Below are positions 38,846 through 56,970 of a stretch of 64,000 nucleotides of DNA, one piece after another. The notes under the pieces are model-generated. The model worked only from the letters and a program-made list of their open reading frames with translations. It was not told the DNA's origin and did no database searches. This stretch comes from Armatimonadota bacterium. GTDB taxonomy: Bacteria > Armatimonadota > UBA5829 > DSUL01. The stretch is from contig JAXGLP010000001.1 in NCBI GenBank assembly GCA_040769165.1, positions 1,451,702 through 1,515,701 on the forward strand. The letters run 5' to 3'. The number at the start of each line of letters is the position of its first letter. Within the stretch, counting starts at the first letter, position 1. Both the position numbers and the translations under genes were made by a program.

Positions 38846-39076
38846 CCGGGAGCAGTGCGGGCAGGTATTTGTACGGATTGACGGGAGGCGCGAGAAGCAG
38901 TACAAAGAACTAAGAAATGCGTGTCAGCCGCCCATCGCACGAGGATGCGAGCGCGTCGGCCGCATAGGCCAGCGCACTCATGTTCCGTCTTGTGCCAGGC
39001 AGCCGCCGTTCTGGATGGCGCCCGCGGGTGGCTTCCGCTTTGCTTGCTGCCTCTGCATCGAAAGGAAGAGAGGGAC

Positions 39077-41590
39077 ATGAATAGAACCCAGTTCAATCGC
39101 TCCACGGTTTACCCCGTCCTCATTCTCGCTCTGCTCGCTGTCGCCGCGCCGTCCTACGCGAACGTGTATGCGGCGCACCTGGCGCCAGCGGCAAATGAGT
39201 GGGATTTCGGGACTCAGGGCAACCTCACCATCACTTACAGGCTCAACCAGCCTGCCACTTCAGTCACCATCGAGATCTTTCGTGCGGCTGAGCCCGGGAC
39301 GGTGGTGAAGACCATCACCGGGACCACCACGTGGGGTCTCAACACAGTTGTCTGGGACGGTACGAAGGACGGCGGCGGACTCGCCCCGAAATCCGGCGGC
39401 TACAAGTTCCGGGTCAAGGCCGAGGACAACGTCGGCTCCAGTTCGTGGACGAATATCACCCCGCTGGACGGCGGCAATGAGATCGGCAGCGCGCAGTTCT
39501 ACGCGCCCGAGGGCATCGCGATCAACAGGGACCAGAACAGCCCCCGGTTCGGACAGATCTACATATCGAGCGGGTACGACGTTGGCCCGTCGGCCAACCC
39601 CGGGGCGAGCGCGTTCGGTGACGGTCTCTTCCTGCTGATGAGCGACATGACATTCAGAGGAGGCACGGCCGACGGGGCGAAGGCCGCGGCAAACAGCAGC
39701 CTCATCACCAGCCTCTTCGCCGGCACGCCCGCCGACGCAAACAGCTACAGCCCCTACAAGCTGAGCATCAACAACGACAACTCCGACGAGATCGTGATGT
39801 CGGACTACTGGTTCCTGTCGGGGTCGAGCGCCTTCGAGAACGTGTGGGTGTTCAACGGCGACGGCACGTCGGTCAAGCGGCTGCTGAACAGCGATACGAC
39901 GGGACCGACCACAGGCGACGCCTTCAACCACGGCAACCAGACGGAAGCTGCCATCAAGGGCATCGGCGAGTCGCGAAGGCTGTTCGGGCTGGATGCGGAC
40001 AAAGACGCCGGCGTGGCCCATTCCATCACGGGCCCCGACTTTCTCCGCTGGGATATCGGCCAGACACAGGAGAACTTCACCAGCCAGCCTGTCGAGTTGC
40101 TGAACGGAGGCTACGTCATTCCCGTAGCCCAGACAGGGGCGGGAACGAGAACCAGCTTCTACTCTGCCCGAGGGCTCAGCATTGGCCAGGTGAGCGGCGA
40201 CGCGTACATCTGCAACCTTCGCTACAACAACTCGCTTGGGAACCAGGCCATGTTCAGGGCGGACCTCGACGCTGAGGGCAATGTCGCGGGGACCGTCTGG
40301 GCGTGGCAGAATCCGCAGTTGACCACGGCCATTCAGGCGGTTGACCCTACGTTCCCCTGCTGGACGCAGAGCACGGCCATTGCAGTGGATGAAGCCCGCC
40401 AGAGGGGCGCGGCGCTGCGGCTGGGTGCAACGTATACGGATACCGGATGCCCCGGGACTGTGCCGGGCGCCCGCGCTGTCGTCTTTAACACGAATGACGG
40501 GACGGTGCTTGCGGCGTTTCCGATCAGCGACACGGGCAACTCGGCGCGCGACCTGGATTTCGATGCGGCCGGGAACCTGTACACGACCAACCAGGCTGAT
40601 GAACACGTGCGGATGTGGTCGCCTCCGGACGGTCCGAACAGCTTCACGACGACCTACTACGGCAATGTCGCTACCAGTTCGCTGAAGGTTACGGTGGAGC
40701 AGGCCGCCGCGCAGGCTGACCCGACGGGCGCCAGCCCCATTAACTTCACCGCCACGTTCAGCGCGCCCGTTACCGGGTTCACTTCGTCGGATGTGAACCT
40801 CGGCGGCACAGGCGAACCGACAACCGCGACAGTTACCGGCGGCCCGAGCGTTTACAACATTGCGGTCACCGGCATGTCCGGCAACGGCACGGTGACGGCG
40901 TCGGTCGCTCCGGACGCGGCGGTTGACGGCTCCGGCAACCCGAACCAGCCCTCCACGAGCGCGGATAACACGGTGCTGTATCAGGCGCCGGAGTCGGTCG
41001 GCAAAGCCAAGACCCGTTTGGACGGCACGCTGGTCTGGCTGGCCGATGTCGTTGTGACGAAGATCATCGGCAACGACTTCTTCGTGCAGGACAAGGACCG
41101 CGCCGCGGGCGCGCGCATTCTGGTTTCGGGCGGCACGCCGTCCGTGGCCGTTAACACGCTGGTCAGTCTGAGGGGCACGGTGGCAACGGCTGGCGCGGAG
41201 CGCGTCGTGAATGCCGAGCTGGCAAACATCACCAGCGGCGCCGCGTTCACGGCGGTACCGCTTCAGACGCGCTCGAGCGATGCTGGCGGCGACAAGGTTG
41301 CCGGCGGCGCCGGGCTTCCGGATGACGGCCTGCTGGCTACAGTGGCCGGGAGGGTGACCGAGACGGACTTCTACAGCTATGTCTATCTGGACGATGGCTC
41401 TGTTGTGGCCAACGACGCGACAACCACCGCAAAGGGCATCAAGATAGACCTGACGACGTCCACAATCGGCATCGTGCCCATGCCCGATCAGTATGCGAAG
41501 ATCACGGGTGTGGTGCGGGCGCTTCAGGCTGGGGACAAGGTCATTCCTGTCATTCAGCCCCGCGACGACGCGGATATCGCTGTCGAGTAG
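39077..41590 (+). CDS. Secreted FlgD-Ig-like/Big-domain protein, paralog 2 (divergent copy, 837 aa) with shared C-terminal module
   Basis: Start at ATG 39077 (AAAGGAAGAGAGGGAC RBS) inside track ORF 38921..41590. About 70-75% identical to paralogs 1 and 3 in the N-terminal two-thirds, and near-identical in the last ~300 aa. Confidence 0.85.
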   Translation: MNRTQFNRSTVYPVLILALLAVAAPSYANVYAAHLAPAANEWDFGTQGNLTITYRLNQPATSVTIEIFRAAEPGTVVKTITGTTTWGLNTVVWDGTKDGGGLAPKSGGYKFRVKAEDNVGSSSWTNITPLDGGNEIGSAQFYAPEGIAINRDQNSPRFGQIYISSGYDVGPSANPGASAFGDGLFLLMSDMTFRGGTADGAKAAANSSLITSLFAGTPADANSYSPYKLSINNDNSDEIVMSDYWFLSGSSAFENVWVFNGDGTSVKRLLNSDTTGPTTGDAFNHGNQTEAAIKGIGESRRLFGLDADKDAGVAHSITGPDFLRWDIGQTQENFTSQPVELLNGGYVIPVAQTGAGTRTSFYSARGLSIGQVSGDAYICNLRYNNSLGNQAMFRADLDAEGNVAGTVWAWQNPQLTTAIQAVDPTFPCWTQSTAIAVDEARQRGAALRLGATYTDTGCPGTVPGARAVVFNTNDGTVLAAFPISDTGNSARDLDFDAAGNLYTTNQADEHVRMWSPPDGPNSFTTTYYGNVATSSLKVTVEQAAAQADPTGASPINFTATFSAPVTGFTSSDVNLGGTGEPTTATVTGGPSVYNIAVTGMSGNGTVTASVAPDAAVDGSGNPNQPSTSADNTVLYQAPESVGKAKTRLDGTLVWLADVVVTKIIGNDFFVQDKDRAAGARILVSGGTPSVAVNTLVSLRGTVATAGAERVVNAELANITSGAAFTAVPLQTRSSDAGGDKVAGGAGLPDDGLLATVAGRVTETDFYSYVYLDDGSVVANDATTTAKGIKIDLTTSTIGIVPMPDQYAKITGVVRALQAGDKVIPVIQPRDDADIAVE

Positions 41591-41658: not shown

Positions 41659-41952
41659 TGGGCTCCTGATACTGTAGAGCACGGCAGAGTGCGGCACGGA
41701 GAAGGTTTTTTGCGTTGATTTTGCCTGCACGAGGCCTGCATGGATTGACTTTGGCGCGGCTGAAGATGTACACATTAGGCAGGGTCCGCGCGCCCGTGGA
41801 GGTCTCAGGAACTCTGCCGGGACGCTGACTGTGGCCGAATCGCGTGGGCTCGAATGTCGTCGAAAGCCCCGCAGGCGCCGTTTGCGGAGGGTGCTTGCAC
41901 GAGGGCTTTATGTCAGTCGTCTGTTAATGGGAAGGAAAGGAAGAGAGGGATC

Positions 41953-44457
41953 ATGACTCGCAAACCCTCTACACTCTTTGCTCGATCGCTGGCGCTGTTG
42001 GTGTGCGCTCTCGCGCTTGGCATGGCGGCCGCGCCGTCTTATGCCAACGTGTATGCCGCGCACCTGGGCGCTGCCGGAAACGAATGGGATTTCGGCACCC
42101 AGGGCAACCTGGCTATCACCTACAGGCTCAATCAGCCTGCGACATCGGTTACCATCGAGATCTACCGCGTTGCCGACCCGGCGACAGTGGTGAAGACCAT
42201 CGCAGGAACGACAACCTGGGGTCTGAACACAGTTGTGTGGGACGGCACCAAGGATGGCGGCGGACTTGCTCCCAAGTCCGGCGGATACAAGTTCCGGGTC
42301 AAGGCTGAAGACGCCGTGGGCGCCAGCTCATGGACGAACATTACTCCGCTCGACGCCGGCGGCGAGATCGGCAGCGCGCAGTATTACGCGCCGCAGGGAA
42401 TCGCCATCAACAAGGACCAGACGAGCCCGTTCTTCGGGCAGATCTACATCTCCAGCGCTGAGGACGCAAGCCCGTCCACCAACCCGGGCGCGACAGCCAT
42501 GGGCGACGGGCTGTTCCTGCTGATGAGTGACATGACGTTCCGGGGCGGCACTGTCGAGACCGCCAAAGCTGCGGCCAACAGCAGCCTCATCACCGCAACA
42601 GCCGCGACACCCGACACCTACAACTACAGCCCTTGGAAGCTGACGATCAACCATGACAACTGGAACGAGATCGTCATGTCGGACTACCTTGACGGCTGGG
42701 AGGAAGTCTGGGTGTTCAACGCCGACGGGACGTCGGTTAAGCGGCTGCTGAACAAAGAGACCACCGGTCCGAACGCCGCGGTTGAGGCCTTCAACCACGG
42801 CAATCAGCTCGAGATCGCGATCAAGGGCGTCGGCGACAAGCGCAAGCTGTTCGGCCTCGATGAGGACAAGGACCCGGAGCCCGCGCACTCCGTCACCGGG
42901 CCGCAGTTCCTGCGCTGGGACATCGGAACCGTGCAGGAGAACTTTGTTGGCCAGCCGGCGGAACTGCTGAACGGTGGATACGTGATCCCGCCGGCGCAGA
43001 TCGGCGGGGGCACCAGCACCAACTTCTACACTGCGTTCGGCATGTACATCGGGCAGGTCAGCGGCGACGCCTACATCTGCAACCGCCGCTATAACAACGA
43101 TCTTGGTAATCAGGCCATGTTCAGGGCCGACCTGGACGCCGAAGGCAAGCTGCTTGGCACTGTTTGGGCATGGCAGACCACGGAGCTTACCGCGGCAATA
43201 CAGGCGATTGACCCGACCTTCCCGTGCTGGTGCCGCACGGACTCTATCGCGGTTGATGAAGGCCGCAAGAGAGGCGTGGCGATCCGCGACGGATCGACAA
43301 TCACTGACATAGGATGCCCTGGAACCGTCGCCGGTGGACGCGCTGTCGTGTTCGACACGGACAACGGCGCTGTGCTGGCCGCGTTCCCGGTCAGCGATAC
43401 GGGCAACTCGGTCCGCGACTGCGAGTTTGACGCAGCCGGCAACCTGTACACGGGCTGCCAGTCGGACGAGCATGTGCGGATGTGGTCACCGCCGGACGGA
43501 CCGAACAGCTTCACGACCACCTACTACGGCAATGTGGCCACCAGCAACCTGAAAGTGACCGTCGAGCAGGCCGGCGCGCAGGCTGACCCGACCGGGACCA
43601 GCCCCATCAACTTCACCGCCACGTTCAGCGCCCCGGTCACCGGATTCGACTCGGCGGACGTTATCGTCGGCGGCACGGGCGAGCCGACTGGCGCAACCGT
43701 TACCGGCGGCCCGAGCGTTTACAACATCGCGGTCACCGGCATGTCCGGCAACGGCACCGTGACGGCTTCCATCGCCCCGGACGCGGCGGTTGACGGCTCG
43801 GGCAACCCGAACCAGCCCTCCACCAGCGTGGACAACACCGTGCTGTATCAGGCGCCGGAGACGGTTGGCAAGGCGAAGACGCGCACGGACGGCACACTGG
43901 TCTGGCTGGCGGATGTTGTCGTGACGAAGATCATCGGCAACGACTTCTTCGTTCAGGACAAGGACCGCGCTGCTGGCGTGCGGGTGGTGGTATCCGGCGG
44001 GACTCCGTCCGTTGCCGTAAACACGCTCGTTAGCCTCACCGGCACCGTGGGCACCGCTGGCGCGGAGCGCATCCTCAACGTGGCCCTGGCGGACATCACT
44101 GCGGGCGCGGCGTTCACGGCGGTTCCGCTGCAGACGCGCTCGAGCGATGCTGGCGGCGACAAGGTTGCCAGCGGCGTCGGCCTTCCGGACGACGGCCTGC
44201 TTGCCACGGTTGCCGGTCAGGTGACCGAGACGGACTTCTACAGCTACGTTTACCTTGATGACGGCTCTGTCGTGGCGAACGACTCCACGACCCCGGTCAA
44301 GGGCATCAAGATAGACCTGACGACGTCCACCATCGGCATCGTGCCCCTGCCTGAGCAGTATGCGAAGGTCACGGGTGTGGTGCGCGCGCTTCAGGCTGGA
44401 GACAAGGTTATTCCTGTCATTCAGCCGCGCGACGATGCGGATATCGCTGTCGAGTAG
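41953..44457 (+). CDS. Secreted FlgD-Ig-like/Big-domain protein, paralog 3 (834 aa) with shared C-terminal module
   Basis: Start at ATG 41953 (GGAAGGAAAGGAAGAGAGGGATC leader) inside track ORF 41854..44457. About 98% identical to paralog 1 after residue ~75; the N-terminal signal-peptide region differs. Confidence 0.85.
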   Translation: MTRKPSTLFARSLALLVCALALGMAAAPSYANVYAAHLGAAGNEWDFGTQGNLAITYRLNQPATSVTIEIYRVADPATVVKTIAGTTTWGLNTVVWDGTKDGGGLAPKSGGYKFRVKAEDAVGASSWTNITPLDAGGEIGSAQYYAPQGIAINKDQTSPFFGQIYISSAEDASPSTNPGATAMGDGLFLLMSDMTFRGGTVETAKAAANSSLITATAATPDTYNYSPWKLTINHDNWNEIVMSDYLDGWEEVWVFNADGTSVKRLLNKETTGPNAAVEAFNHGNQLEIAIKGVGDKRKLFGLDEDKDPEPAHSVTGPQFLRWDIGTVQENFVGQPAELLNGGYVIPPAQIGGGTSTNFYTAFGMYIGQVSGDAYICNRRYNNDLGNQAMFRADLDAEGKLLGTVWAWQTTELTAAIQAIDPTFPCWCRTDSIAVDEGRKRGVAIRDGSTITDIGCPGTVAGGRAVVFDTDNGAVLAAFPVSDTGNSVRDCEFDAAGNLYTGCQSDEHVRMWSPPDGPNSFTTTYYGNVATSNLKVTVEQAGAQADPTGTSPINFTATFSAPVTGFDSADVIVGGTGEPTGATVTGGPSVYNIAVTGMSGNGTVTASIAPDAAVDGSGNPNQPSTSVDNTVLYQAPETVGKAKTRTDGTLVWLADVVVTKIIGNDFFVQDKDRAAGVRVVVSGGTPSVAVNTLVSLTGTVGTAGAERILNVALADITAGAAFTAVPLQTRSSDAGGDKVASGVGLPDDGLLATVAGQVTETDFYSYVYLDDGSVVANDSTTPVKGIKIDLTTSTIGIVPLPEQYAKVTGVVRALQAGDKVIPVIQPRDDADIAVE

Positions 44458-45671: not shown

Positions 45672-48122
45672 TTACGCAAGTTCAAGGATCTCCTCCACAC
45701 TCGGAAGGCCGGACGGCCCAGCGCCGTCGCGCAGCACGGACGACTGCGTGTCCTGATCGTAGTCCACCCAGATGCAGCGATCCACCATGTCGTGTATCGA
45801 ATCAATGTGGGTGATGAGCAGAATCTGCGGGAAGCTGCCCTTCAGGTTGTCGAGAAGAGCGATCACGTTCTCCCGGCGCAACTCGTCGAGAGAACCAAAG
45901 ACCTCGTCCAGAATCAGCAAGCCGAGTTCGATGCCCGCGCGCTCGGCGATCATCTGCGAAACTCCGAGCCGCAGGCACAGATGCAGGATATCCTCCTCGC
46001 CCCCGGAGACAACCGGCTTGTGCTCTCCCTCTTCGTAAAGCCGGGGCGCGAAATCGTCGTCGAGGTCCATCTGGCTGTAGCGCTCGGGTGCAACCTGCGA
46101 CAGGAAATCCGACGCGGCCTCTTCCAGGCGCGGCTTGATCTGAGCGCTGAGGGCGGCGCGCAGCTCATCCAGAGCCTGCACGAGCGCCTCGAGGTGCCGC
46201 TGCTCGGACTTCTTCTCATCGAGCACCTTCAGGCGGGACTTCTGCTCTTCTTCCTGCCTTTCAGTATCCTTGAGCAGTGCCTCCGCAGTCCGAACATCCG
46301 ACTTCAGGCTGACGGCCTCTTCGCGTGCCGTCCGGGCAGCGAACTCAGCCTTCTGGCGGCTCGCGACGAGGTCGTTGTGCGCCTTTTCGTCGAAGGCAAG
46401 CGCGGCGATCTGGGCCTCCACTTCCGCCGCGTTCTTGAGCAGATCGTTAAGGCGCGCGGTCTGTGCGCTCAGGTCACGCTCCACCTCATCGCGCCGAGCC
46501 ACTCGCGCCTGCAACTGGGTGAGGCGGTCGCGCTGTGGCTTGAGTTCCCTGCCGCGACTGCGTACCCGCTCAAGCTCATCCGGATCGAAGTCGCCTTCGA
46601 TTGCGCTCAGCTTCTTCTCGCTCGCCTGCAACTGCGCCCGCAGGTCTGCAAGCTGCGTCTGCTCGCGCTTGAGCTGCTCCCCGGCGGTTTCCGCGCGGGT
46701 GACGGCTTCACGGGCAACGGAAAGGGACTTCTCGGAATCCTCGAACTGCGTCTTGAGGCGTGTCAGTTCGGCAGGCTGTGCTTTGAGGCTCGCAATCTCC
46801 GCGTCCATCTCGCGCACAGATTGGCCGGCAGCCGACAGGTCGCGCTTCATCTGACCCGTGACTTTGTCGAACTCCGCGCCCAGCGGACGCTCACAGGTGG
46901 GGCACACTCCATCAGGCCCGGCCTTCTCGACCTGCCGGAGATGCTCCGCAAGCTCGCTCTGGCGCGCCCGCGCTGTGCGTGCCCCGGCCTCCGCCGACGA
47001 CCTCCGCCGCACGAGATCACTCTGGGCGGCTTCGAGTTCGGAGCGCATCTCCGCGTTCTGCTGTGCCGCCGCCTCCGCCCGCTTGCGCAACTCAATGAGG
47101 GAAGCGAACTGCTCTTCAAGAACCCGTATGCTCTCCAGCGTCCGGGATATCTGAGTTGTCGTCTGGGTTATCGCTGTCCGAATGCCGCTTCTCTGGGCGT
47201 CGGCGGCCTTCAGCTCCAGGAGATGCTCGTTGCGCGTTTTGAGTTCTTCGTATTCCCGGGCGAGGGGTTGCAGCTCCTGCACTTCGGCCTGCGCGGCCTC
47301 GATCCCGTCCCGCTCGCCCTGCACCCGGGCGATGTTCTCGCGAATCACTGCTTCCTGACTGCGCACGAGGTTGAGGTTCGCGCCGAGCGACTCATGGAGT
47401 TTATGTTTGTTCAGGGATGCGTCTACTTCCGGAACAATCTTGTCCAGTTCCGCCTGAGCCTGCAACGCCAGCGCCTCCCCCTCCTCTAGCTTCGCGCGCG
47501 CCTCCTTCACCGCCGCTTTCTGCTCGGCCTTGCGCGCCTTGATGCTTTCGGGGTCCCCCAGCCCCTGCACCAACCCGTCTATCGTGCGGCCGCACTGCAG
47601 CTTCTCGTCATTCGCAAGCGCGCGCGCCTTCGAGAGCCGCTCGTAGCCGAGAAGCTTCCCGATGTAGGCCTCGCGTCCTTTCGAGCTGACATCCTTCAGA
47701 AACGCAAGGTCCTTCTGCCCTGTAAAGAAGCTGGTAAAGAAGGCCTGAGGATCCATGCCCAGCAGCTGCCCAACCTTCTGGGTCACATTCTCCGTGCCGG
47801 TCGCCAGCTGCGTATCGCCGGAGAAGAGTGCGGCATCGTTGAGACGGCGCACCACACGGAAGGGCTGGCCCGCAAGGTCGAAATCGAGGGTCACTTCCGG
47901 AACTTCGCCCCTCTTCGAGCCGCGCGACCGGATGGTGTCCGCCTTGCCGCGCTCCATCCGCTGAACGGCCTTCTGGCCGTAGAGTGCCCACGCGATAGCT
48001 TCGAGGAGCGTGCTCTTGCCCGCCCCGTTGCGGCCGATGATGCCGGTGATCCCGTCCTGAAACAGGATGTCCGTCTCTTTGTGCTGACGGAAGCTGCGCA
48101 GCTTCAGTGAAAGCAGTCTCAC
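45672..48122 (-). CDS. sbcC: DNA double-strand break repair ATPase SbcC/Rad50
   Basis: N-terminal Walker A GRNGAGKSTLLEAI. Long coiled-coil with CPTCERPL zinc hook. C-terminal signature/D-loop LILDEVFGSLD. Confidence 0.85.
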   Translation of the reverse strand: MRLLSLKLRSFRQHKETDILFQDGITGIIGRNGAGKSTLLEAIAWALYGQKAVQRMERGKADTIRSRGSKRGEVPEVTLDFDLAGQPFRVVRRLNDAALFSGDTQLATGTENVTQKVGQLLGMDPQAFFTSFFTGQKDLAFLKDVSSKGREAYIGKLLGYERLSKARALANDEKLQCGRTIDGLVQGLGDPESIKARKAEQKAAVKEARAKLEEGEALALQAQAELDKIVPEVDASLNKHKLHESLGANLNLVRSQEAVIRENIARVQGERDGIEAAQAEVQELQPLAREYEELKTRNEHLLELKAADAQRSGIRTAITQTTTQISRTLESIRVLEEQFASLIELRKRAEAAAQQNAEMRSELEAAQSDLVRRRSSAEAGARTARARQSELAEHLRQVEKAGPDGVCPTCERPLGAEFDKVTGQMKRDLSAAGQSVREMDAEIASLKAQPAELTRLKTQFEDSEKSLSVAREAVTRAETAGEQLKREQTQLADLRAQLQASEKKLSAIEGDFDPDELERVRSRGRELKPQRDRLTQLQARVARRDEVERDLSAQTARLNDLLKNAAEVEAQIAALAFDEKAHNDLVASRQKAEFAARTAREEAVSLKSDVRTAEALLKDTERQEEEQKSRLKVLDEKKSEQRHLEALVQALDELRAALSAQIKPRLEEAASDFLSQVAPERYSQMDLDDDFAPRLYEEGEHKPVVSGGEEDILHLCLRLGVSQMIAERAGIELGLLILDEVFGSLDELRRENVIALLDNLKGSFPQILLITHIDSIHDMVDRCIWVDYDQDTQSSVLRDGAGPSGLPSVEEILELA

Positions 48123-49267
48123 AGTTTCGCCTCCTCTTCGGCGGCCTTCGCCAGATACTGCGAGCCAAGAGCCGAGAGCCGTTTCGGGTCTATTCCGCGG
48201 GGCAGGCCCTCGAGGGCCTCCGCGAACTCACGCCACTCCACCTCCAGCGGCCGGGACGATCCAGCGACGCCATCAGCGGCCGCCTGACCGGCGCGGGCAG
48301 GCGGGCGGAGCGCAAGCTCGAGATGCATCGCCTGGCTCTTGAGTTCACGAAGCCGCCCCCAGTCCAGGTCGCGCTGGATGGAACGCGGAATGCCGTCAAC
48401 GACAACCCGCACAATCCGGTCCTGCAGCCCGTTCAGCCCGGCAAGCTGTGTTTCGATAGCACCCATAATCTCTTCGCCGCAGAGGTCTTCGGCGGCCAAC
48501 GGGGCCAGATCGTGGACTTCGCGAAGTCCGGGCGTCCCGTGAACCTCCACTTCCGGGCCCTCGCTGTCGTAGATCAGATATCCCTTGGAAGGCCCGCGGG
48601 CCTCCTCCCAGATGTTCGTGCTCGTGTATTCGGTGGCGCCAGAGTAGAAGCAGTTCGGCGCGATCTCGGTTCGAATGTGATAGTGCCCGACGGCAATGTA
48701 GTTCCACTCGTCGAAGTACAGCTCGCCCGGGTCAAGCTGCACCGGGTCGTGCATTCCGTACGCCACTCCCCGGACGGTTCCGTGAAGCGCCAGAACATTG
48801 ACGCCGCCTCCTTCCGCCGGGCGAACCTGCGTGTTGCGTTCGTGAAGCGCGAAATAGGGCAGGCAATAGACCCTGCAGCCGAGACCGTCAAACCCTAGGC
48901 CCTCGTACCCGTGATGCCTCACATACACATGCTCGAAAGCATCCGGAAACAGGTCGAGAATGCACCCCGCGTCGGTGGATTTCGGCGTGTCGTGGTTTCC
49001 TCCCACAATCACGATGGGCGTGTCGTATTTCCGCCGGAACCGCGAGAACAGACGGAACGTCTTCTGGATGACCAGGTTGCTCGGGCGCACGGTGTGGAAC
49101 ATATCGCCAGCGATGACGATCAGGTCCACGTTCCTGCCCGTGACATCAACCAGCACCCGCTCGAAGGCGCCGAACACATCATCCTCACGCTGATTGACCC
49201 CCTCCGGCGTCAGGCGCGCGTAGGCGCGATACCCGAGATGCACATCAGAAATGTGGGCTATTCGCAT
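48119..49267 (-). CDS. sbcD: DNA repair nuclease SbcD/Mre11
   Basis: Calcineurin-like phosphoesterase motifs DVHLG, GDMFH, GNHD, ...HGT.... ATGA overlap with sbcC start. Confidence 0.85.
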   Translation of the reverse strand: MRIAHISDVHLGYRAYARLTPEGVNQREDDVFGAFERVLVDVTGRNVDLIVIAGDMFHTVRPSNLVIQKTFRLFSRFRRKYDTPIVIVGGNHDTPKSTDAGCILDLFPDAFEHVYVRHHGYEGLGFDGLGCRVYCLPYFALHERNTQVRPAEGGGVNVLALHGTVRGVAYGMHDPVQLDPGELYFDEWNYIAVGHYHIRTEIAPNCFYSGATEYTSTNIWEEARGPSKGYLIYDSEGPEVEVHGTPGLREVHDLAPLAAEDLCGEEIMGAIETQLAGLNGLQDRIVRVVVDGIPRSIQRDLDWGRLRELKSQAMHLELALRPPARAGQAAADGVAGSSRPLEVEWREFAEALEGLPRGIDPKRLSALGSQYLAKAAEEEAKL

Positions 49268-49270
49268 CTG

Positions 49271-51298
49271 CTATCCCTTCTCGAAAGGATCGTAGTCATC
49301 GCCGCCCGCGGACGCCACGCGCGGCGCTCCGAAGCCGCCCGGTCCCGCCGGGGCAACCTGAGGCTGGCTCTTCGCGAGCTTCTTCAGCACCGCCAGCGGA
49401 TCGGGCGGGCATTCGAGCCTGATCCGGTTCAGCGCATTGATGACCGACTCGCGGTCGGATTCCTCCACCACCGCGCGCACCGCGTCGGTCGTTACCGTGC
49501 GGTCGTACTCGCGGCACACCCGCACCGCGACATCTTCGAGCGAAAGCTCCCCGGCCTCCGGAAACAGCTTGATGCCGTCCGACCCGCGCAGGATGTTCGG
49601 ACGCGGGAACTTCACGAATATCGCCTGGCTGAAGTGCGGATGCCGCACCATAAGTTGCCCCTTGGAAAGCGTCGCGAGCTTCTCGCGCTCAGCCCGGCTT
49701 AGAACCTGATACCCCGGCGTCGAGAGTTCGTCCATATCCATGCGCCCGTACATTGACGTGCCGCAGTTGCCAACGACCCGCTTGTGCACCTGGCTGCGAA
49801 ACTGCTGCGCGCTGAACAGAACCAGCCCGATATAGCGGCCGCGCTCCGAGATATCGAGAAGCGTCTTCTTGAGATATGTCTCCGGTCCGTCGCTCGGGGC
49901 GTACTTGTTCAGCTCGTCAACGACAACGACGCACTTCTCGACGCCTAGCTTCTTCTTCTCGAGATACTCCCGCAGCTTGCTGACGACGCGCGTCACGACA
50001 AGGTCCTGCCCCTGGGCATCCATCTTCGCGATGTCTATGACGTAGATGCTGCCCGGCTTGAACTCGCCCCACGGCAGGTCGGCGCAGCGCTCGTCGCGCT
50101 CGACGAGCAGCCCCCGGTAGCGCGTCACGAGGTTGGAGAGGCGGTTGTACACCTTGCGGATGGTCATCACGTTGTGCGTGCGGAACTGCTCTTCGCCGCG
50201 GCCGCCTTTCTCGTCTTCCAGATGCTTGAGGAGCTGCCGGAACCAGCGCTCGAGGTCCTGAAACGTGCGGACAGGGGGAAGGCAATCGCCATTCGAGAGT
50301 TTGATCCCGTTTTCGTCCCGGATGACCGTCTGGTTGATGTACTGGATGAACGCGTCGGCCTTGGCGTCTATGTCATCGCGGTTGAGAACAACCTCCGCGA
50401 ACTCGAGAATGTCGGTGAGGCCCCAGGCGAGCGCCGAGACGTTGTGCGTCACATCAGGGTTCGACCGGAGGGTGCTGAGGTTGAACTGGTCCTCTTTATA
50501 CGGCGCGTAGTAATGGACATCCCGAAACGCTTCGCAGGGCACGCCGAGCGCGTCGTACATCGCGAAGTCGTCGGGCGTGAGCTGCCCCACCCCGAGCTTC
50601 TCGTACCGCTCCGCCAGATCGGGGTCCTCGGGGCTCTGATCCGGGTAGTCCAGGAACAGCATGTCGTGTCCCTTCACGTTGAAGCAGACACACGCGACGT
50701 TGTCCTGAGTCGCGAAGATGCTTTGAAGCAGAAACTCGATGGCGCTCGTCTTGGTCGCGAGCCCCGAGACGCCCGTCAGCGTAGCGTGGGCCGCCTCGGG
50801 CCCCAGCAGGAACTCGGCGTCGAGCAGCACGGGTGAGAGCATCTCGCCGTTCTGATAGACGCCGATGGGCACGCCGGTCTTTTCGGCATAGGTGTCCATC
50901 CGCAGCGAGCGCTTGACGCAGAAATCGTCCGACAGGTACACCGGGCCCACCGGAACGGGCTGGACAGGCTCCTCCGGGTCTCGCCGGAGCACCGCCGCTG
51001 TGTAGCAACGAACTTCCGGCCTGCGGGTCATCGGCTCGTTGTCGGGCCGCTCCTCCATGCCGATGTAGTCGTGCATGGCTGAGGCCACATCGGTAAATGA
51101 CCACGCCTCGATCACGACGCCGTACACCTGGGTCGCACCCGCGTCAACAACGACCAGCGTCCCGATTCCCACCGGCGACCCCTCGCCCGTCCAGAAGTGG
51201 AACTCGTACGCGGTATTCGGCTTCGCTTCGGTCGCGACGACACGCCCGACCTGCCGCAGATCGGCGCTGAACCCCGCCTTCTCGCCTTCCATAGTCAT
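49271..51298 (-). CDS. herA: HerA-like DNA helicase/ATPase (FtsK-HerA superfamily)
   Basis: N-terminal HAS-barrel-like region (GRVVATEAKPNTAYEFHFWTG...GTLVVVDAGATQVYGVVIE). Walker B VVVVDELNKY. Putative P-loop reads GVSGLATKTS, which is non-canonical by eye. Sits between nurA and sbcD. Confidence 0.65.
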   Translation of the reverse strand: MTMEGEKAGFSADLRQVGRVVATEAKPNTAYEFHFWTGEGSPVGIGTLVVVDAGATQVYGVVIEAWSFTDVASAMHDYIGMEERPDNEPMTRRPEVRCYTAAVLRRDPEEPVQPVPVGPVYLSDDFCVKRSLRMDTYAEKTGVPIGVYQNGEMLSPVLLDAEFLLGPEAAHATLTGVSGLATKTSAIEFLLQSIFATQDNVACVCFNVKGHDMLFLDYPDQSPEDPDLAERYEKLGVGQLTPDDFAMYDALGVPCEAFRDVHYYAPYKEDQFNLSTLRSNPDVTHNVSALAWGLTDILEFAEVVLNRDDIDAKADAFIQYINQTVIRDENGIKLSNGDCLPPVRTFQDLERWFRQLLKHLEDEKGGRGEEQFRTHNVMTIRKVYNRLSNLVTRYRGLLVERDERCADLPWGEFKPGSIYVIDIAKMDAQGQDLVVTRVVSKLREYLEKKKLGVEKCVVVVDELNKYAPSDGPETYLKKTLLDISERGRYIGLVLFSAQQFRSQVHKRVVGNCGTSMYGRMDMDELSTPGYQVLSRAEREKLATLSKGQLMVRHPHFSQAIFVKFPRPNILRGSDGIKLFPEAGELSLEDVAVRVCREYDRTVTTDAVRAVVEESDRESVINALNRIRLECPPDPLAVLKKLAKSQPQVAPAGPGGFGAPRVASAGGDDYDPFEKG

Positions 51299-52305
51299 AT
51301 CAACCTCGCATCCATCTCAACCTGACTGGGCGATATCGCCTTCAGATACTGCTCGCAATCCCTTATCGGGTAGATCATCCTGTCCCACCGGCCGTCGGGG
51401 AGGCTCACGGGGCATCGTTCGGCCAGAATCCACGCCGAGATCGCGTCTGCATGCCTGATCGCCTCCGGCCCCGGCTTGGCCTCCACGCGCACGAGTCCGA
51501 ACGATGGGTCTTGAGCCCTGTCTTCGCGCAGCCGCACGTACCACGAATACGCCGAGTGGAAATCGCCTTTGTGCGTGCGGAAGACGCTCGTCCGGCGCCC
51601 TTCCGGCAGCTCCATAATCCGCCGGTACTCCTCGCCGGTGAAATAGCGCGTCTGGTGGCTTTTGATAAGCCCCACCACCCGTTCGGAACCCGGGCTATCG
51701 AGCGACAGCGGAATGCCGCCGTCCACAAGCAGCCAATCGTGCGGCCCCGCAGCCGGACACCACTGCCGCGTGAGTTCCTGCTCCAGTTCGGCCCGCGCCT
51801 TTCCGACAGCCCTGTGGGCGGCTTCGCGCACAGCGGCGGGATGGTCGCGGTCGGCCGGCTTCATGTCGCGGGGGAAAGACGGTGCGCAGTCGAGACAATC
51901 CAGAGCGTCTTCGAGAAACCGCTCCGGCGGGCACAGTTCGAACGGCATGACGAGCGCCTCGCGGGTGCGGACAAAGCCGCGGAAGGTGGACATACGCCGG
52001 TCGGCGCCGCGCACCCGGACGGCGGCCGCCACGAACGCCCGCACAACTGGCAGGAGATTGTAGGTCAGGACGATCTTCGTCCTCTGCACGCCGTCCAGAA
52101 AGTGAGTCAGACCGGACACGTCCGCGACAGCCACTTCGCGCTGCTCCAGGGACGTGCCTTCCACCACTTCGGCTTCGACGGTGTGCGCTTCGGCGTCCGG
52201 CAGACGCATGCCGTCTTCGTCCCAGATGTGACCAGTAACAGGCCGAACCGAACTGTCGCCGGCGTTCCGGCGCAGGTGATGCTGCAGTTTTTGTCCAAAG
52301 CTCAT
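51295..52305 (-). CDS. nurA: NurA-like 5'-3' nuclease
   Basis: 336 aa, acidic catalytic-type residues, in operonic position with an ATGA overlap to herA. Assignment rests on family resemblance plus the conserved HerA partnership. Confidence 0.55.
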   Translation of the reverse strand: MSFGQKLQHHLRRNAGDSSVRPVTGHIWDEDGMRLPDAEAHTVEAEVVEGTSLEQREVAVADVSGLTHFLDGVQRTKIVLTYNLLPVVRAFVAAAVRVRGADRRMSTFRGFVRTREALVMPFELCPPERFLEDALDCLDCAPSFPRDMKPADRDHPAAVREAAHRAVGKARAELEQELTRQWCPAAGPHDWLLVDGGIPLSLDSPGSERVVGLIKSHQTRYFTGEEYRRIMELPEGRRTSVFRTHKGDFHSAYSWYVRLREDRAQDPSFGLVRVEAKPGPEAIRHADAISAWILAERCPVSLPDGRWDRMIYPIRDCEQYLKAISPSQVEMDARLI

Positions 52306-52404
52306 CGCTGCCTCCCGGGCAGAATGGTATCACACGCGGACATGTTCGAGACCAAACATCCGTTCCCCTGCGTTATCGGGGGCGGAATTCAGAAATCCAG
52401 CGTC

Positions 52405-53298
52405 TCAGGGCGCGAGAATCCGGTCGAGCCCTTCAGCAAACGGCGTTAGGGGCAGATGCAGGGCTTCGACGGCGTGATTTGGCTCCGCTATGTTGTCTTC
52501 TCCGAGCATTATGAGCTGATCGGGAGTGAGCGGAAAGCGTGAAGTGACCCTGGACATTGTGCCCGAGAGCAAACGCATCAGCGCCGCCGGAACGTGCACG
52601 AACGGCTTTCGCGATTTCATCCGCCCCGCGATCACGCGAAGAATGGTCTCGAAGGAGAGGCGCTCCGGACCGCCCAACTCGAACGTATTCCCCGCCATCG
52701 CGGCGGCATCTTCAAGGCAGGCGGCGAACGCGTTGCAGACATCCTCGACGGCAATCGGCTGGAACAGATTCCTGCCGCTGCCGATGACCGGCACGACCGG
52801 CGCCTTTCGCACGAGATCAATCAGCATCGTCGTGAAGCCGTCGCCTTTGCCGAAGATGAGAGACGGCCGAAGTATGGTCCATTCCAGGCCGGAGGCTCGC
52901 GCGGCCTCCTCTGCCCTCCACTTGCTCTGGTGATATCTGCTTGCCGCCCCCGGCCTCGTCCCAGCCGCGCTCATATGCACGATGCGGCGAACTCCGCACG
53001 CGGCGGCGGCCTCGAGCACGTTGTCCGTGCCCAGCACGTGAACCGCCTCGAACGACGCCCGCGAACTCTCGCGAATGATGCCGACAAGGTGAACAACGGC
53101 ATCGCAGTCCTCAAACGCTCGCGCAAGCGAATCCGGGCTCAGGATGTCGCCGCGCGCGACCGTGACCCCCTCCGCCGGAAGCTGCCCCGGACGCGGATCA
53201 GACCGTACAAGGCAGGTCAGGTGATGGCCACGGCCGGCAAGCTCGCGCGCCATCGCGCGGCCTACAAACCCGGTGGCTCCCGTAAGTGCTATCCTCAC
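52405..53298 (-). CDS. NAD-dependent epimerase/dehydratase family protein (NmrA/NDUFA9-like)
   Basis: N-terminal Rossmann motif LTGATGFVGRAMARELAGRGH. SDR-extended fold. Confidence 0.8.
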   Translation of the reverse strand: MRIALTGATGFVGRAMARELAGRGHHLTCLVRSDPRPGQLPAEGVTVARGDILSPDSLARAFEDCDAVVHLVGIIRESSRASFEAVHVLGTDNVLEAAAACGVRRIVHMSAAGTRPGAASRYHQSKWRAEEAARASGLEWTILRPSLIFGKGDGFTTMLIDLVRKAPVVPVIGSGRNLFQPIAVEDVCNAFAACLEDAAAMAGNTFELGGPERLSFETILRVIAGRMKSRKPFVHVPAALMRLLSGTMSRVTSRFPLTPDQLIMLGEDNIAEPNHAVEALHLPLTPFAEGLDRILAP

Positions 53299-54443
53299 CC
53301 GCTGCCTCCATTGCTCGCGGCCAGCATCAGCCGCCCAAGATTGCAGGAAGCCAGCTCCAGCAGATCCGGCGTGCGCCGCAGGGCTTCCTCCAGAGTCATC
53401 GGCCTGTCCGCCGCCGCAATGAGAGCGGTCGCTCCGCGCGCATAGAACGGTTCGGAATCGTCAACCGTGACAGCGCCGGACAGAATGACGCACGGCTTTT
53501 TCGCCTGCCTCGCAAGCTCCAGCACACGACAGACAACCTTGCCGCTCAGCGTCGAAGCGTCGGTCTTGCCTTCGCCCGTGATGACCCAGTCCGCGCGCTC
53601 CATGCGCTCCGGCAGACGGATCGCGTCCGCAATCAGCCCCGCGCCGCTCAGGATACGAGCGCCGCAAAACGCGAGCAGCCCCGCCCCCAGCCCGCCTGCC
53701 GCTCCCGCGCCCTCCGCGTGTTCCACGTCAACGCCCAGACTGCTGCGAAGCACATCAGCATAGCGCGCCAGCGCCCTGTCAAGAAGCTGCACGTCAGCCC
53801 GAGACGCGCCTTTCTGAGGGCCATACACAGCCGATGCGCCGTCATCTCCTGTAAGCGGGTTGCGGACGTCGGACGCGACGTCAATGGGTGTACTGACGAT
53901 GCGGGGGTCGAGCCCGGATACGTCCACCCGCGCCAGAGTCTGAAGAGCCTGCCCGCCGGGCCCGATCTCTTCGCCGTGTTCATCCAGCAGGCGCGCCCCC
54001 AGCGCCGACGCCATTCCCGCGCCGCCGTCGTTGGTGGCGCTTCCGCCGATGCCGATGATGACCCGTTTTGCCCCGCAGTCCAGCGCGCGCAGGATGAGTT
54101 CGCCCACCCCGCGGGTTGTCGCGACAAGCGGGTTCCGCTCGTCCGGCCGAAGAAGTTGCAGGCCGGCGGCTTCGGCCATCTCCAGAACCGCCGTCTCGCC
54201 GTCTTCCAGAAACCCAAAACGCGCCTCCACGGGAGCACCCACGGGTCCGGTGACCCGATGCGTCTGAAGCCGCCGCCCTCGCGCGCACAGAGCGTCCACC
54301 GTGCCCTCGCCGCCATCAGCCATCGGCGCGAGGTCGCTCTGGATGCGCTTCGACGCGCGCGTCAGGCCAGTTTCCATGTGCTCCGCCACAGCCGAGGCAG
54401 AGAGAGCCTCCTTGTAGGAGTCGGGGCAGACGAGTATCTTCAC
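53295..54443 (-). CDS. glxK: Glycerate kinase
   Basis: GTG start at 54443 (AGGGA RBS) inside the longer track ORF. VKILVCPDSYKEALSA...MADGGEGTVDAL matches the GlxK/GckA N-terminus. 4-nt overlap with the epimerase gene. Confidence 0.8.
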   Translation of the reverse strand: MKILVCPDSYKEALSASAVAEHMETGLTRASKRIQSDLAPMADGGEGTVDALCARGRRLQTHRVTGPVGAPVEARFGFLEDGETAVLEMAEAAGLQLLRPDERNPLVATTRGVGELILRALDCGAKRVIIGIGGSATNDGGAGMASALGARLLDEHGEEIGPGGQALQTLARVDVSGLDPRIVSTPIDVASDVRNPLTGDDGASAVYGPQKGASRADVQLLDRALARYADVLRSSLGVDVEHAEGAGAAGGLGAGLLAFCGARILSGAGLIADAIRLPERMERADWVITGEGKTDASTLSGKVVCRVLELARQAKKPCVILSGAVTVDDSEPFYARGATALIAAADRPMTLEEALRRTPDLLELASCNLGRLMLAASNGGSG

Positions 54444-54469
54444 GGCGGCGTCCCTGCCATCTGAGTTCA

Positions 54470-56581
54470 CTACGGCCTCACGATATCCCCCGGAGACCTT
54501 GGCACAAGAACGGGTATGCTGCCGGTGGGGCCGGCCTCGAGTTGCGCGATGCCCGTAACGCGCACCATCGCGCCCAGCGAAGGCGGAGTGCCCGCGACAG
54601 GCGTGATCACCTTGAGACCCGAACCCGAAGCCGACCCGTCGTTGAGCGTGAAGTAGCCGGTACTGCGTATTGTTACGCGGCCCCAGGTGTCCACAAGCAG
54701 CCCTATCGTGCCAAGCCCCTTCGCTGCGGGATCGCCGGACGTCCAGGTAACTTGTGCCGGGCGGCATGCCAGACTACGTATATCGCCCCCGTATTCGATG
54801 TCGGAGACTCTCTGACAGTCGCGCAGGTAACGCTCGCCCGTCGGCTTCGTCCCGAGCACTCCGACGATCTGCACCATTCGCCCGGGCGTGAACACGTCCG
54901 TGGACTCGGCGCGAATGCCCGCGCTGCGATCCTGCTGCTGCACGTAGTTTGCCCCGGCCTGCTGCGAGCTTGCTGTGACGAGCAGCCCCGAAGCGATGAC
55001 GCGGGTGCCATCGACGAACTGACCCGCCTCCCCCAGCCTGCTCATCTGGACGGGCTGCGGAGCAAGCGGGCTGACGGCGAAATCCTCGCGCGACACCGCG
55101 CCGGGAAGCACGCGCACATCACGCCGCGAGGCGATATACCCCGCCCCGTTGATGGCATAGACCGGGTACACCGTCCCGGACGCCGCGGCCGGCATTCCTG
55201 TAATGGTATAGTAGCCGTTGCCGTCCGTCTGAGCGGTATAGGCCGACCCGGGGCGCAGCACGGTGGCGTTGTCTATCGGCTCGCCCGTTATCGCATCCAC
55301 AACTCGCCCGAAGAGCACCCCGTCCGTCGCCAGAGCCGGGTCGCGCCAGGGCATGGCAGGCGTCGGCGCGGGTAGTGCGAACAGCGTGCTGCCGATGTAG
55401 CTGTACCAGGACCAGTCTGTCTCCCCCGTGCCGTCTTCGTTGCTGTCCACGGTCACGGCATACGAGTAGTTGACGGTGCCGTTCGCCCCGGCGTCCAGGC
55501 AGTACTGCATCTGGGTGACGCTGTCCGGCATAGTGTTGAGGTAGTTCGCCTGCCCGCAGAAAACGTGGCGGTCGTGCCGCCAGACGACTACCCTGTTGAT
55601 CCAGTTCCGGTACCAGAGCGCATTGTTGGGGACCGCCTCGCGCTTGTAGTTCATGGGACAGGCAGCGTCGAGCCATCCCTGCGCCATCCAATGCTCCCAG
55701 TTCTGAAAGAGCTTGTATGCGCTGGTTGAGGTGAAGAGCGAAGGGGCATCTCCAAAGGAGATGAGCGCGGCAGTGTGCCTGAGCGGCTGCCGCGGGTTTG
55801 TGGTGATTAGCGGGAGTTCGGCCCGGACGCGCGCTACGAGTTCGTTGATGGTGCGCCGTCTGAAATCATCCCACTGAGCGTCACCCGAGGCGGCTGGCAC
55901 ATCGGTGCGGCCCGTGATCCGCTGAAACCGGCTGAGGCCGGATTTGTTATACGACGCGACGGCCGGGTAGCCTGCATCGGCCGAGGTGTAGCGGATGTAA
56001 TCCCAGTGTATCCCGTCAATCGCGTAGTTCGTCGCCAGCTCCCTGACGATGGAAACGAGATGCTCCTGAACTGCGGGGCAGCCCGGGTCGAGCGTGTACT
56101 TGCCATCCACCGTTGCCACCGAGCCCATCGAGCCAGACGGTACCATTAGCCACTCGGGGTGGCTGGCGAGCAGGCTGTTGCCAGCGGGCGGCCACGATGT
56201 GGACACCCTGTATGCCACCAGCCAGCAATGCACCTCGATGCCGGCGGCGTGCGCCTTCTGGACAAGATACGCCAGCGGGTCTATCCCGCCGGAGATGTCG
56301 GTGGCTTTCGGGACGAGAGAGGAGTTCCAGTAAGCCCCGTGGCCGCCGCCCGCGGTGTCGTGGTAGGCCAGCACTTCGGGGATGATTGCATTGTACTTGC
56401 CCGCCACGGCCCTGGCGACAAGAGAGTCAATCTGAGACGTGCTCTTGAAGCCGGAATGGAAGGCATCCGCCCAGAAAGCCCGGAACACTCCATCGGCGCT
56501 TACTGGCAGGTGAGCAGCAGCCAGGGTAAGCGCAGTAACCAGCGCAGCCATGAGAGAACGAGGGAACTGCTTGACGATCAT
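54470..56581 (-). CDS. Secreted glycoside-hydrolase-like family 10 (GHL10) protein with carboxypeptidase-regulatory-like domain and the shared C-terminal module
   Basis: Start at ATG 56581 (GGAAAGG RBS) inside the longer track ORF; signal peptide MIVKQFPRSLMAALVTALTLAAA. FRAFWADAFHSGFK TIM-barrel start typical of GHL10. C-terminal module at about 54470-55040. Confidence 0.75.
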   Translation of the reverse strand: MIVKQFPRSLMAALVTALTLAAAHLPVSADGVFRAFWADAFHSGFKSTSQIDSLVARAVAGKYNAIIPEVLAYHDTAGGGHGAYWNSSLVPKATDISGGIDPLAYLVQKAHAAGIEVHCWLVAYRVSTSWPPAGNSLLASHPEWLMVPSGSMGSVATVDGKYTLDPGCPAVQEHLVSIVRELATNYAIDGIHWDYIRYTSADAGYPAVASYNKSGLSRFQRITGRTDVPAASGDAQWDDFRRRTINELVARVRAELPLITTNPRQPLRHTAALISFGDAPSLFTSTSAYKLFQNWEHWMAQGWLDAACPMNYKREAVPNNALWYRNWINRVVVWRHDRHVFCGQANYLNTMPDSVTQMQYCLDAGANGTVNYSYAVTVDSNEDGTGETDWSWYSYIGSTLFALPAPTPAMPWRDPALATDGVLFGRVVDAITGEPIDNATVLRPGSAYTAQTDGNGYYTITGMPAAASGTVYPVYAINGAGYIASRRDVRVLPGAVSREDFAVSPLAPQPVQMSRLGEAGQFVDGTRVIASGLLVTASSQQAGANYVQQQDRSAGIRAESTDVFTPGRMVQIVGVLGTKPTGERYLRDCQRVSDIEYGGDIRSLACRPAQVTWTSGDPAAKGLGTIGLLVDTWGRVTIRSTGYFTLNDGSASGSGLKVITPVAGTPPSLGAMVRVTGIAQLEAGPTGSIPVLVPRSPGDIVRP

Positions 56582-56970
56582 AAAGAACCTTTCCGGGGAC
56601 AGGGCAGGCCTGCCACCCCGGCCCGCCGATGCTGTTACTACCATCATATTGTAGCACGATGAGCCCTTCCGGGGGCAGGCAGGTCCACCCAGCGCCGGCC
56701 CCTTTTGTGATTTTGGGGAGGAGAAGCGGACGCGGGCGCGCAAATAGTGGGCAGAACATACGAGTTGTTGGACACCCGTGGGCCATCCGGCGGAAAGTTT
56801 TCGCAGACGGGCTCGGGATTGTTGGAGCAAAGGTCGCAATTCTGGCGTCTATCCTGTAAGATGTACCAGTGCGGCCGGACTTCCCGCCGCGCGGCTCGCG
56901 TTAGAATATGCCCCGCTAAGAGGGCAGATGCCTTGACAGCTGGACCTTCACGTCCCGGTGGAGCCAAAAC

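Follow-up and report, generated by a model that had tools for sequence, protein, structure and literature searches.

The question of whether the nuclease NurA and the translocase HerA act in bacteria as partners of Mre11-Rad50, and in what process, is raised by a 64-kb stretch of DNA, likely from an Armatimonadota genome (hereafter the window, whose positions are the coordinates used throughout), in which four minus-strand genes follow one another in the order nurA, herA, mre11 (sbcD family) and rad50 (sbcC family). Recent primary papers regard HerA-NurA as an archaeal system which, outside the archaea, occurs in "a few bacteria such as Deinococcus-Thermus" (PMC9960219, PMC12977600). Whether it resects DNA ends or destroys foreign DNA is a matter of open debate. 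The results presented here indicate that in two other phyla bacterial-type NurA-HerA and Mre11-Rad50 form a stable linkage, which extends over many species; of the 80 best loci, taken from 508 species whose genomes encode this NurA subfamily, 31 carry all four genes. We regard it as probable that the four genes, which are probably carried on one transcript, specify a complete machine for the processing of DNA ends, whose role would be the resection of double-strand-break ends for recombination. As a cluster of this kind has been noted previously in Oceanithermus profundus (PMC5448004), the arrangement is known in kind; what is new is the conservation of the block in two further, largely mesophilic phyla and its concealment by standard annotation.

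Gene structure and identity of the four proteins

The order and strand of the four genes (Table 1) are as given in the initial annotation, and the listing of open reading frames (ORFs) returns products of exactly 336, 675, 382 and 816 amino acids (aa). In three other metagenome contigs encoding an identical HerA, independent gene calls yield the same four products with the same spacing. The junctions, as read from the sequence, consist of a 4-nt overlap, ATGA, between nurA and herA and a 3-nt gap between herA and mre11 (TAG-cag-ATG), both in agreement with the earlier description; the 4-nt overlap described between mre11 and rad50 is likewise present, but it reads GTGA and not ATGA, as rad50 starts with GTG. 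Purine runs resembling Shine-Dalgarno sequences precede each start by 6-8 nt (GGGAGG before nurA, then GCGAGG and GAAGGGA, and GAGGAGG before rad50). From this junction geometry we infer that the four genes are co-transcribed and translationally coupled. A consensus scan for promoters and terminators found no sigma-70-like site on the minus strand upstream of nurA, and it is uninformative, because the sites which it returned are no more numerous than in shuffled sequence. Since the genes for an epimerase and a glycerate kinase lie upstream on the same strand, the block may also be transcribed by read-through.

The Pfam searches by which the initial annotation proposed to verify NurA and HerA did not do so, as NurA scored 14.7 bits against PF09376 (E 0.021; cut-off 21) and HerA 18.4 bits against PF01935 (DUF87; cut-off 23.2). 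Due to these sub-threshold scores, a fold comparison and a sequence search of the PDB were needed to settle the identity of the two proteins. The 336-aa protein has no match among the NCBIfam or PADLOC profiles, and precomputed Pfam assignments are blank for it and for 119 of 120 listed homologues; the fold comparison gives it the RNase H-like/PIWI-like fold of NurA. In members of the NurA family, the conserved acidic residues of the catalytic site are found on strand 1, on helix 1 and on strand 4, together with a conserved histidine. In the window protein, D71, E175 and D195 (invariant) and H217 (nearly so) are located on the expected secondary-structure elements and are candidates for a common metal site, with D195 aligning with the DG motif of the Deinococcus radiodurans NurA.

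The 675-aa protein matches the D. radiodurans HerA (DrHerA, 7f6d_B) in a phmmer search (E 4.6e-45, 157 bits) over residues 16-269 and 353-568, i.e. over the N-terminal (HAS-barrel) region and the RecA-like domain. Its deviant Walker A sequence, GVSGLATKTS (residues 176-185), aligns with GISGVATKTS of DrHerA, the shared pattern being GxSGxATKTS, and its Walker B sequence VVVVDELNKYAP (also given as DELNKYAP) aligns with D487/E488 of the latter. Thus K183/T184 and D461/E462 of the window protein correspond to K175/T176 and D487/E488 of DrHerA, the residues through which nucleotide and Mg are bound in the crystal structure (PMC9960219). No variation is seen at G176, G179, K183, T184, D461 and E462 among 28 homologues. 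Against the NCBIfam archaeal equivalog models NF040819 and NF040937, HerA scores only 21.7 (cut-off 970) and 19.1 (cut-off 800), with E 6e-5. HerA and NurA are both nearest to proteins of Deinococcus and Thermotoga, and archaeal HerA is undetected by sequence; the two are clearly of the bacterial (Deinococcus/Thermotoga) type and not of the archaeal type. All four family assignments of the initial annotation are upheld, and neither the 675-aa nor the 336-aa protein was assigned to an unrelated family, the outcome which that annotation had named as speaking against it. Because NurA and HerA lie below the Pfam thresholds and are labelled hypothetical, routine annotation does not reveal their linkage to Mre11-Rad50.

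Beyond the end of the DrHerA alignment, HerA continues for about 107 aa (residues 569-675), and this extension alone found no match in the PDB. In the window it ends in ...GGDDYDPFEKG, and a tip of the form [DE]-P-[FY] lies within the last 11 residues in 45 of 46 HerA tails from Armatimonadota and Gemmatimonadota, irrespective of whether mre11-rad50 is adjacent. Most Armatimonadota have D-P-F followed by one to three residues (e.g. DDYDPFEKG, DDPFAD; longer in L046), and variants such as DDPYGF, EEPY and DDPYA are found in Gemmatimonadota. We take this acidic-aromatic tip to resemble the C-terminal docking peptide DDDIPF of the single-stranded DNA-binding protein (SSB). The conserved, SSB-like D-P-F/Y tip appears to be an unreported feature of HerA.

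Mre11 matches Pfam Metallophos (E 1.8e-12) and contains all five metal-binding motifs (D8, H10, D55, H58, N91, H92, H162, H195 and H197), which in the form D8-x-H10, G54-D55-x-x-H58, G90-N-H92-D, H162 and G194-H195-x-H197 are kept in 24-28 of 28 homologues. Its best NCBIfam matches are to archaeal Mre11 models (67.4 and 60.5 bits), followed by TIGR00619 sbcd (57.7), all of them below the respective cut-offs (Mre11_Sulfo, 67.4 against 500; TIGR00619, 57.7 against 77.65), and in the PDB it matches Mre11 of Pyrococcus furiosus and Methanocaldococcus jannaschii (~3e-14), that of Thermotoga maritima (1e-7) and Escherichia coli SbcD (5e-4). Rad50 matches Pfam SMC_N, AAA_23 and SbcC_Walker_B, and scores higher against the archaeal model PRK03918 (177.6; cut-off 700) than against TIGR00618 sbcc (90.2; cut-off 478.5); its PDB matches are the proteins of M. 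jannaschii (E 3e-27), P. furiosus (1.5e-21) and T. maritima (8e-14), and E. coli SbcC is not among them at E<=1e-5. Its ATPase motifs comprise Walker A (G30RNGAGKS), the signature (S706-G707-G), Walker B (LLILD739-E740) and the H-loop (H772), with G30, G35, K36, S706, G707, D739, E740 and H772 invariant in 28 homologues and position 37 being S or T. The only CxxC in Rad50, CPTC, lies at residue 407 of 816, and the zinc-hook motif G-x-C-P-[TI]-C-x-R-[PV]-L is found in 28 of 28 homologues at residues 400-417 of 810-841; a coiled coil on either side of it would be consistent with the composition and with the GAS/ASRP matches. For both proteins, archaeal profiles and structures thus give better scores than T. 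maritima, and far better ones than E. coli SbcCD. However, as they miss every curated equivalog cut-off, they appear to form a divergent lineage of their own, and Mre11 in particular is, by these scores, orthologous neither to the curated archaeal nor to the curated bacterial groups.

Distribution and co-divergence of the block

In the protein collection, the NurA subfamily has 527 cluster representatives, nearly all unannotated, and its named members belong mainly to Armatimonadota, Gemmatimonadota (Longimicrobiales) and Abditibacteriota. When one genome per species was scanned, the subfamily was found in 508 species, from which the best 80 loci (L001-L080) were taken; 53 of these extend for at least 7 kb beyond nurA on its downstream side and are informative for gene order. 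The synteny comparison proposed in the initial annotation gave a collinear, same-strand nurA-herA-mre11-rad50 block in 31 of the 53, in Armatimonadota and Gemmatimonadota, while a further locus retains three members of the block, six are limited to nurA-herA, and in 15 nurA stands alone; nurA and herA are adjacent in 38. Among the lone-nurA loci are all three of the informative loci from cyanobacteria, and nine from Gemmatimonadota. In two phyla, the block is therefore the arrangement of the majority of loci with this NurA subfamily, and its earlier description as unusual was overstated, the more so as it had been noted in O. profundus.

The four-gene order is common to the two phyla at 31-55% protein identity, and the lengths of the four proteins are strikingly constant across relatives. 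Among the 27 full clusters of relatives surveyed for their junctions, mre11 and rad50 overlap or are separated by no more than 10 nt in 24, and the 2-3 nt spacing of herA and mre11 seen in the window is found in nine. Compared by their matrices of pairwise distances, the four proteins are correlated with r 0.89-0.95, and in each of the trees for HerA, Mre11 and Rad50 a clade of Gemmatimonadota is cleanly separated from one of Armatimonadota, the window proteins lying in the latter beside those of L004. The four-gene arrangement is not a chance adjacency, and the clade split and co-divergence are consistent with inheritance of the genes as a unit within each phylum.

The O. profundus cluster, nurA-hepA(herA)-sbcD-sbcC, was noted by Blesa et al. 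2017 (section 3.1), who read it as archaeal-like in architecture and in function, viz. double-strand-break repair (PMC5448004). From the description in that paper, the four families are the same as here, with sbcD and sbcC downstream of nurA-herA; however, that report deals in two sentences with one thermophilic Deinococcota genome, whereas the block of the window type is found in dozens of apparently mesophilic species. In the literature searched, it is the only description of such a bacterial cluster, and an earlier mention in a comparative-genomic work is possible. In Deinococcus and Thermus, unlike in the window, the nurA-herA pair does not adjoin mre11-rad50, and compared with the structurally characterised proteins of D. 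radiodurans (PDB 7F6D, 7WRW/7WRX; PMC9960219), the window NurA is only about 20% identical and the window HerA has the additional 107-aa extension with its D-P-F tip.

The designation of the operon as archaeal-style holds in part. In the archaeal herA-mre11-rad50-nurA operon, as it is described for Sulfolobus and Pyrococcus (Constantinesco et al. 2004, as cited in PMC5448004 and PMC9960219), the same four families form one same-strand cluster and the herA-mre11-rad50 sub-order is that of the window, and the window Mre11 and Rad50 are closer to archaeal profiles and structures than to SbcCD of E. coli, Bacillus and Staphylococcus. The designation fails in that nurA is last in archaea and first in the window, and HerA and NurA are of the bacterial type. 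E. coli SbcCD is a homologous nuclease-ATPase pair of the Mre11/Rad50 family, encoded as in the window by adjacent overlapping genes, but it is distant in sequence (E 5e-4 for SbcD) and lacks a linked herA or nurA. E. coli SbcC is 1048 aa long, against 816 aa for Rad50 of the window.

Some relatives depart from the window arrangement in other ways. In clusters of the Gemmatimonadaceae type, a fifth gene lies between herA and mre11, which encodes a conserved protein of 264-299 aa with an apparent N-terminal signal peptide and weak similarity to DUF6263 (E 5e-6 to 7e-5); it is located at L049:11794-12630, L052:11781-12575, L076:11804-12658, L059:6841-7740 and in seven more Gemmatimonadota loci, and is absent from the window. 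In loci of the Longimicrobiales type, nurA and herA lie 2-5 kb apart, with unrelated genes between them (L042:9916-13415, L062:9889-13100, L021:2290-4260), those in L042 encoding a flavin reductase, a short-chain dehydrogenase and an ORF without a Pfam match; the nurA/herA overlap is therefore not obligatory. The genes inserted in L013 and L017 are unrelated orphans. The inserted genes were considered as extra components of the system, but none is common to the lineages and none is present in the window, and, being lineage-specific, they are treated as passengers. NurA without a following herA is seen in cyanobacteria (L043, L050, L054, L057, L060, L065, L080) and in Gemmatimonadota (L047, L048, L061, L063, L064, L067, L075, L077, L079). 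The cyanobacterial loci L043, L050, L054 and L060 are too short for the absence of herA to be judged; in the 12 herA-less loci with at least 7 kb downstream, there is no herA within 8-9 kb on the downstream side of nurA. When a partner gene of the lone nurA was looked for in four loci (from cyanobacteria and Gemmatimonadota), only unrelated housekeeping neighbours were seen.

A probable role in end resection and its alternatives

In the process which we consider probable, Mre11-Rad50 would recognise and tether DNA double-strand ends and nick or trim them, a HerA hexamer with a mounted NurA dimer would then translocate along the duplex and pass the unwound strands to the NurA active sites, and the 5' strand would be degraded, leaving a 3' single-stranded tail for RecA. 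These steps are modelled on archaeal reconstitutions and on structures and assays of D. radiodurans NurA-HerA (PMC3326311, PMC4351679, PMC9960219). A stimulation of HerA-NurA resection through Mre11-Rad50 has been demonstrated with the P. furiosus proteins, and it is the biochemistry of the P. furiosus and Sulfolobus proteins, together with the D. radiodurans structures, which suggests that the two sub-complexes cooperate and serve in recombinational repair. Several observations weigh against such a role. The block is not obligatory, as six informative loci have nurA-herA only and 15 a lone nurA, and in some relatives unrelated genes are inserted between its members. Further, what NurA-HerA does in bacteria is contested: its deletion in D. 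radiodurans or Thermus thermophilus has a modest effect on damage resistance or even improves it (PMC9960219). A 2026 study makes the case that HerA-NurA of archaea breaks down both strands and that its function may be antiviral instead of one in resection (PMC12977600).

An alternative which we consider unlikely is that the module destroys foreign linear DNA of phages or plasmids by degrading both strands, similar to RecBCD before it encounters Chi, with HerA-NurA being loaded at ends recognised by Mre11-Rad50. A chromosomal, RecBCD-like dual role against linear foreign DNA is conceivable and is discussed in the current literature (PMC12977600), and repair and the degradation of foreign DNA are not mutually exclusive. 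However, the PADLOC matches obtained here (mad8, mad3, LmuB) reflect generic P-loop/SMC ATPase similarity, and NurA and Mre11 have no meaningful match to a defence model; the block stands in a housekeeping neighbourhood with conserved flanks, and no defence or mobile-element genes were seen in the 64-kb window; and the gene trees follow the phylum boundaries instead of the patchy pattern expected of defence islands. In addition, the HerA family is nearly absent from plasmids and phages. Due to the generic nature of the PADLOC matches, the housekeeping context and this near-absence, a dedicated mobile defence island is unlikely. The HerA-plus-nuclease defence pairs (TdpAB, HerA-Sir2, HerA-DUF4297) also differ from the system described here, as the similarity to them is far lower than to bona fide NurA, TdpAB and other pairs of this kind have no Mre11-Rad50 partner, and the window has no defence-island context. 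Two specific candidates were rejected. MADS is an eight-gene operon in which Mad1, 2 and 5 show similarity to restriction-modification components and regulators (10.1101/2023.03.30.534895); the matches to it and to Lamassu are weak and generic, the other MADS genes are absent here, and no full PADLOC component set (including PARIS/Septu-type ATPases) is present. A mobile element was likewise set aside, the comparison of HerA with plasmid and phage collections having given eight distant matches of at most 31% identity.

It would be quite a different matter if nurA-herA and sbcDC were independent units that happen to be neighbours without functional coupling, SbcCD acting, for example, on hairpins or protein-blocked ends. 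The six loci with nurA-herA lacking adjacent mre11-rad50, the same condition in Deinococcus and Thermus (PMC5448004), and the toleration by Gemmatimonadota of an unrelated secreted-protein gene between herA and mre11 are in accordance with this proposal, which nevertheless appears highly improbable in view of the 2-3 nt herA/mre11 junction in the window and in nine of the 27 full clusters, and of the retention of the four-gene order and the co-divergence of the four proteins across two phyla at the identities given above. The herA-mre11-rad50 linkage, moreover, recurs in archaea with a HerA that is only distantly related, and we infer from this recurrence a signature of coupling, as it provides independent comparative evidence that the two sub-complexes work jointly. 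We consider it very unlikely that the module serves another DNA transaction, such as export or import of DNA between cells, chromosome segregation or the processing of stalled forks. The HerA/NurA paralogues of T. thermophilus take part in transjugation (PMC5365140; PMC5448004), HerA is a member of the FtsK-HerA pumping ATPases, and a role of archaeal HerA in cell division has been raised (PMC12977600); against this, neither the window nor the relatives examined have genes for conjugation, competence or division in linkage with the block, and the linkage is specifically to Mre11-Rad50, the sensor and nuclease of double-strand breaks.

Resection of double-strand-break ends thus remains the role which we favour for the four-gene machine. 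A more far-reaching proposal, which at present is doubtful, is that the operon could be the principal long-range resection machine for double-strand breaks in Armatimonadota and Gemmatimonadota, where it would replace RecBCD/AddAB, and that the HerA tip could be a new docking element. If this were true, entire mesophilic bacterial phyla would use a pathway of archaeal logic, Mre11-Rad50 plus HerA-NurA, and the tip would couple the machine to the SSB interaction network or to Mre11-Rad50. As some of the bacterial carriers have cultured members, they are possibly tractable for a genetic test of the HerA-NurA role.

Chromosomal surroundings of the block

The coordinates of the four genes and of their notable parts are given in Table 1. 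The block is flanked by genes for a glycerate kinase and an epimerase (upstream) and for a polyprenyl synthase (downstream), and these neighbours recur in L001, L002 and L004, where the identity of NurA to that of the window is only ~42-50%. Elsewhere the 64-kb window has an ordinary chromosomal content, with genes for an ammonium transporter, GlnD, glutamine synthetase, an ABC binding protein, fumarase, MnmG and glycosidases. Scans of it for tRNA genes and Rfam families found nothing.

Table 1. Positions of the genes of the nurA-herA-mre11-rad50 block and of selected features within or next to them
Feature	Position	Strand	Description
nurA	51295..52305	minus	336 aa, ATG start; bacterial-type NurA nuclease, RNase H-like/PIWI-like fold
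herA	49271..51298	minus	675 aa, ATG start; bacterial-type HerA translocase, FtsK-HerA superfamily
mre11 (sbcD family)	48119..49267	minus	382 aa, ATG start; Mre11 nuclease
rad50 (sbcC family)	45672..48122	minus	816 aa, GTG start; ABC-ATPase with predicted coiled coil and zinc hook
Rad50 zinc-hook codons, C407-P-T-C410	46893..46904	minus	Midpoint of the protein
HerA C-terminal extension, aa 569-675	49274..49594	minus	Helical segment, low-complexity linker, acidic-aromatic tip
Spacer upstream of nurA, 99 nt	52306..52404	minus	Shine-Dalgarno-like GGGAGG of nurA; possible promoter region

Beyond the polyprenyl synthase gene lie three tandem paralogues on the plus strand (36272-38776, 38921-41590 and 41854-44457), whose products, 834-889 aa in length, each carry a FlgD Ig-like domain at the N-terminus and have no other Pfam match. 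An ORF of 2274 aa (11968-18792, minus strand) combines a subtilase (Peptidase_S8) domain with Ig-like and purple-acid-phosphatase-N-like repeats, and its product is probably a large secreted or surface protease. On the upstream side, the longest ORF for the glycerate kinase (53295-54767, minus strand, 490 aa) overlaps the upstream GHL10 gene (54470-56839, minus strand) by about 300 nt. As its Pfam match begins at residue 111 and other gene callers give a product of 391 aa, the true start of the glycerate kinase is probably internal to this ORF.

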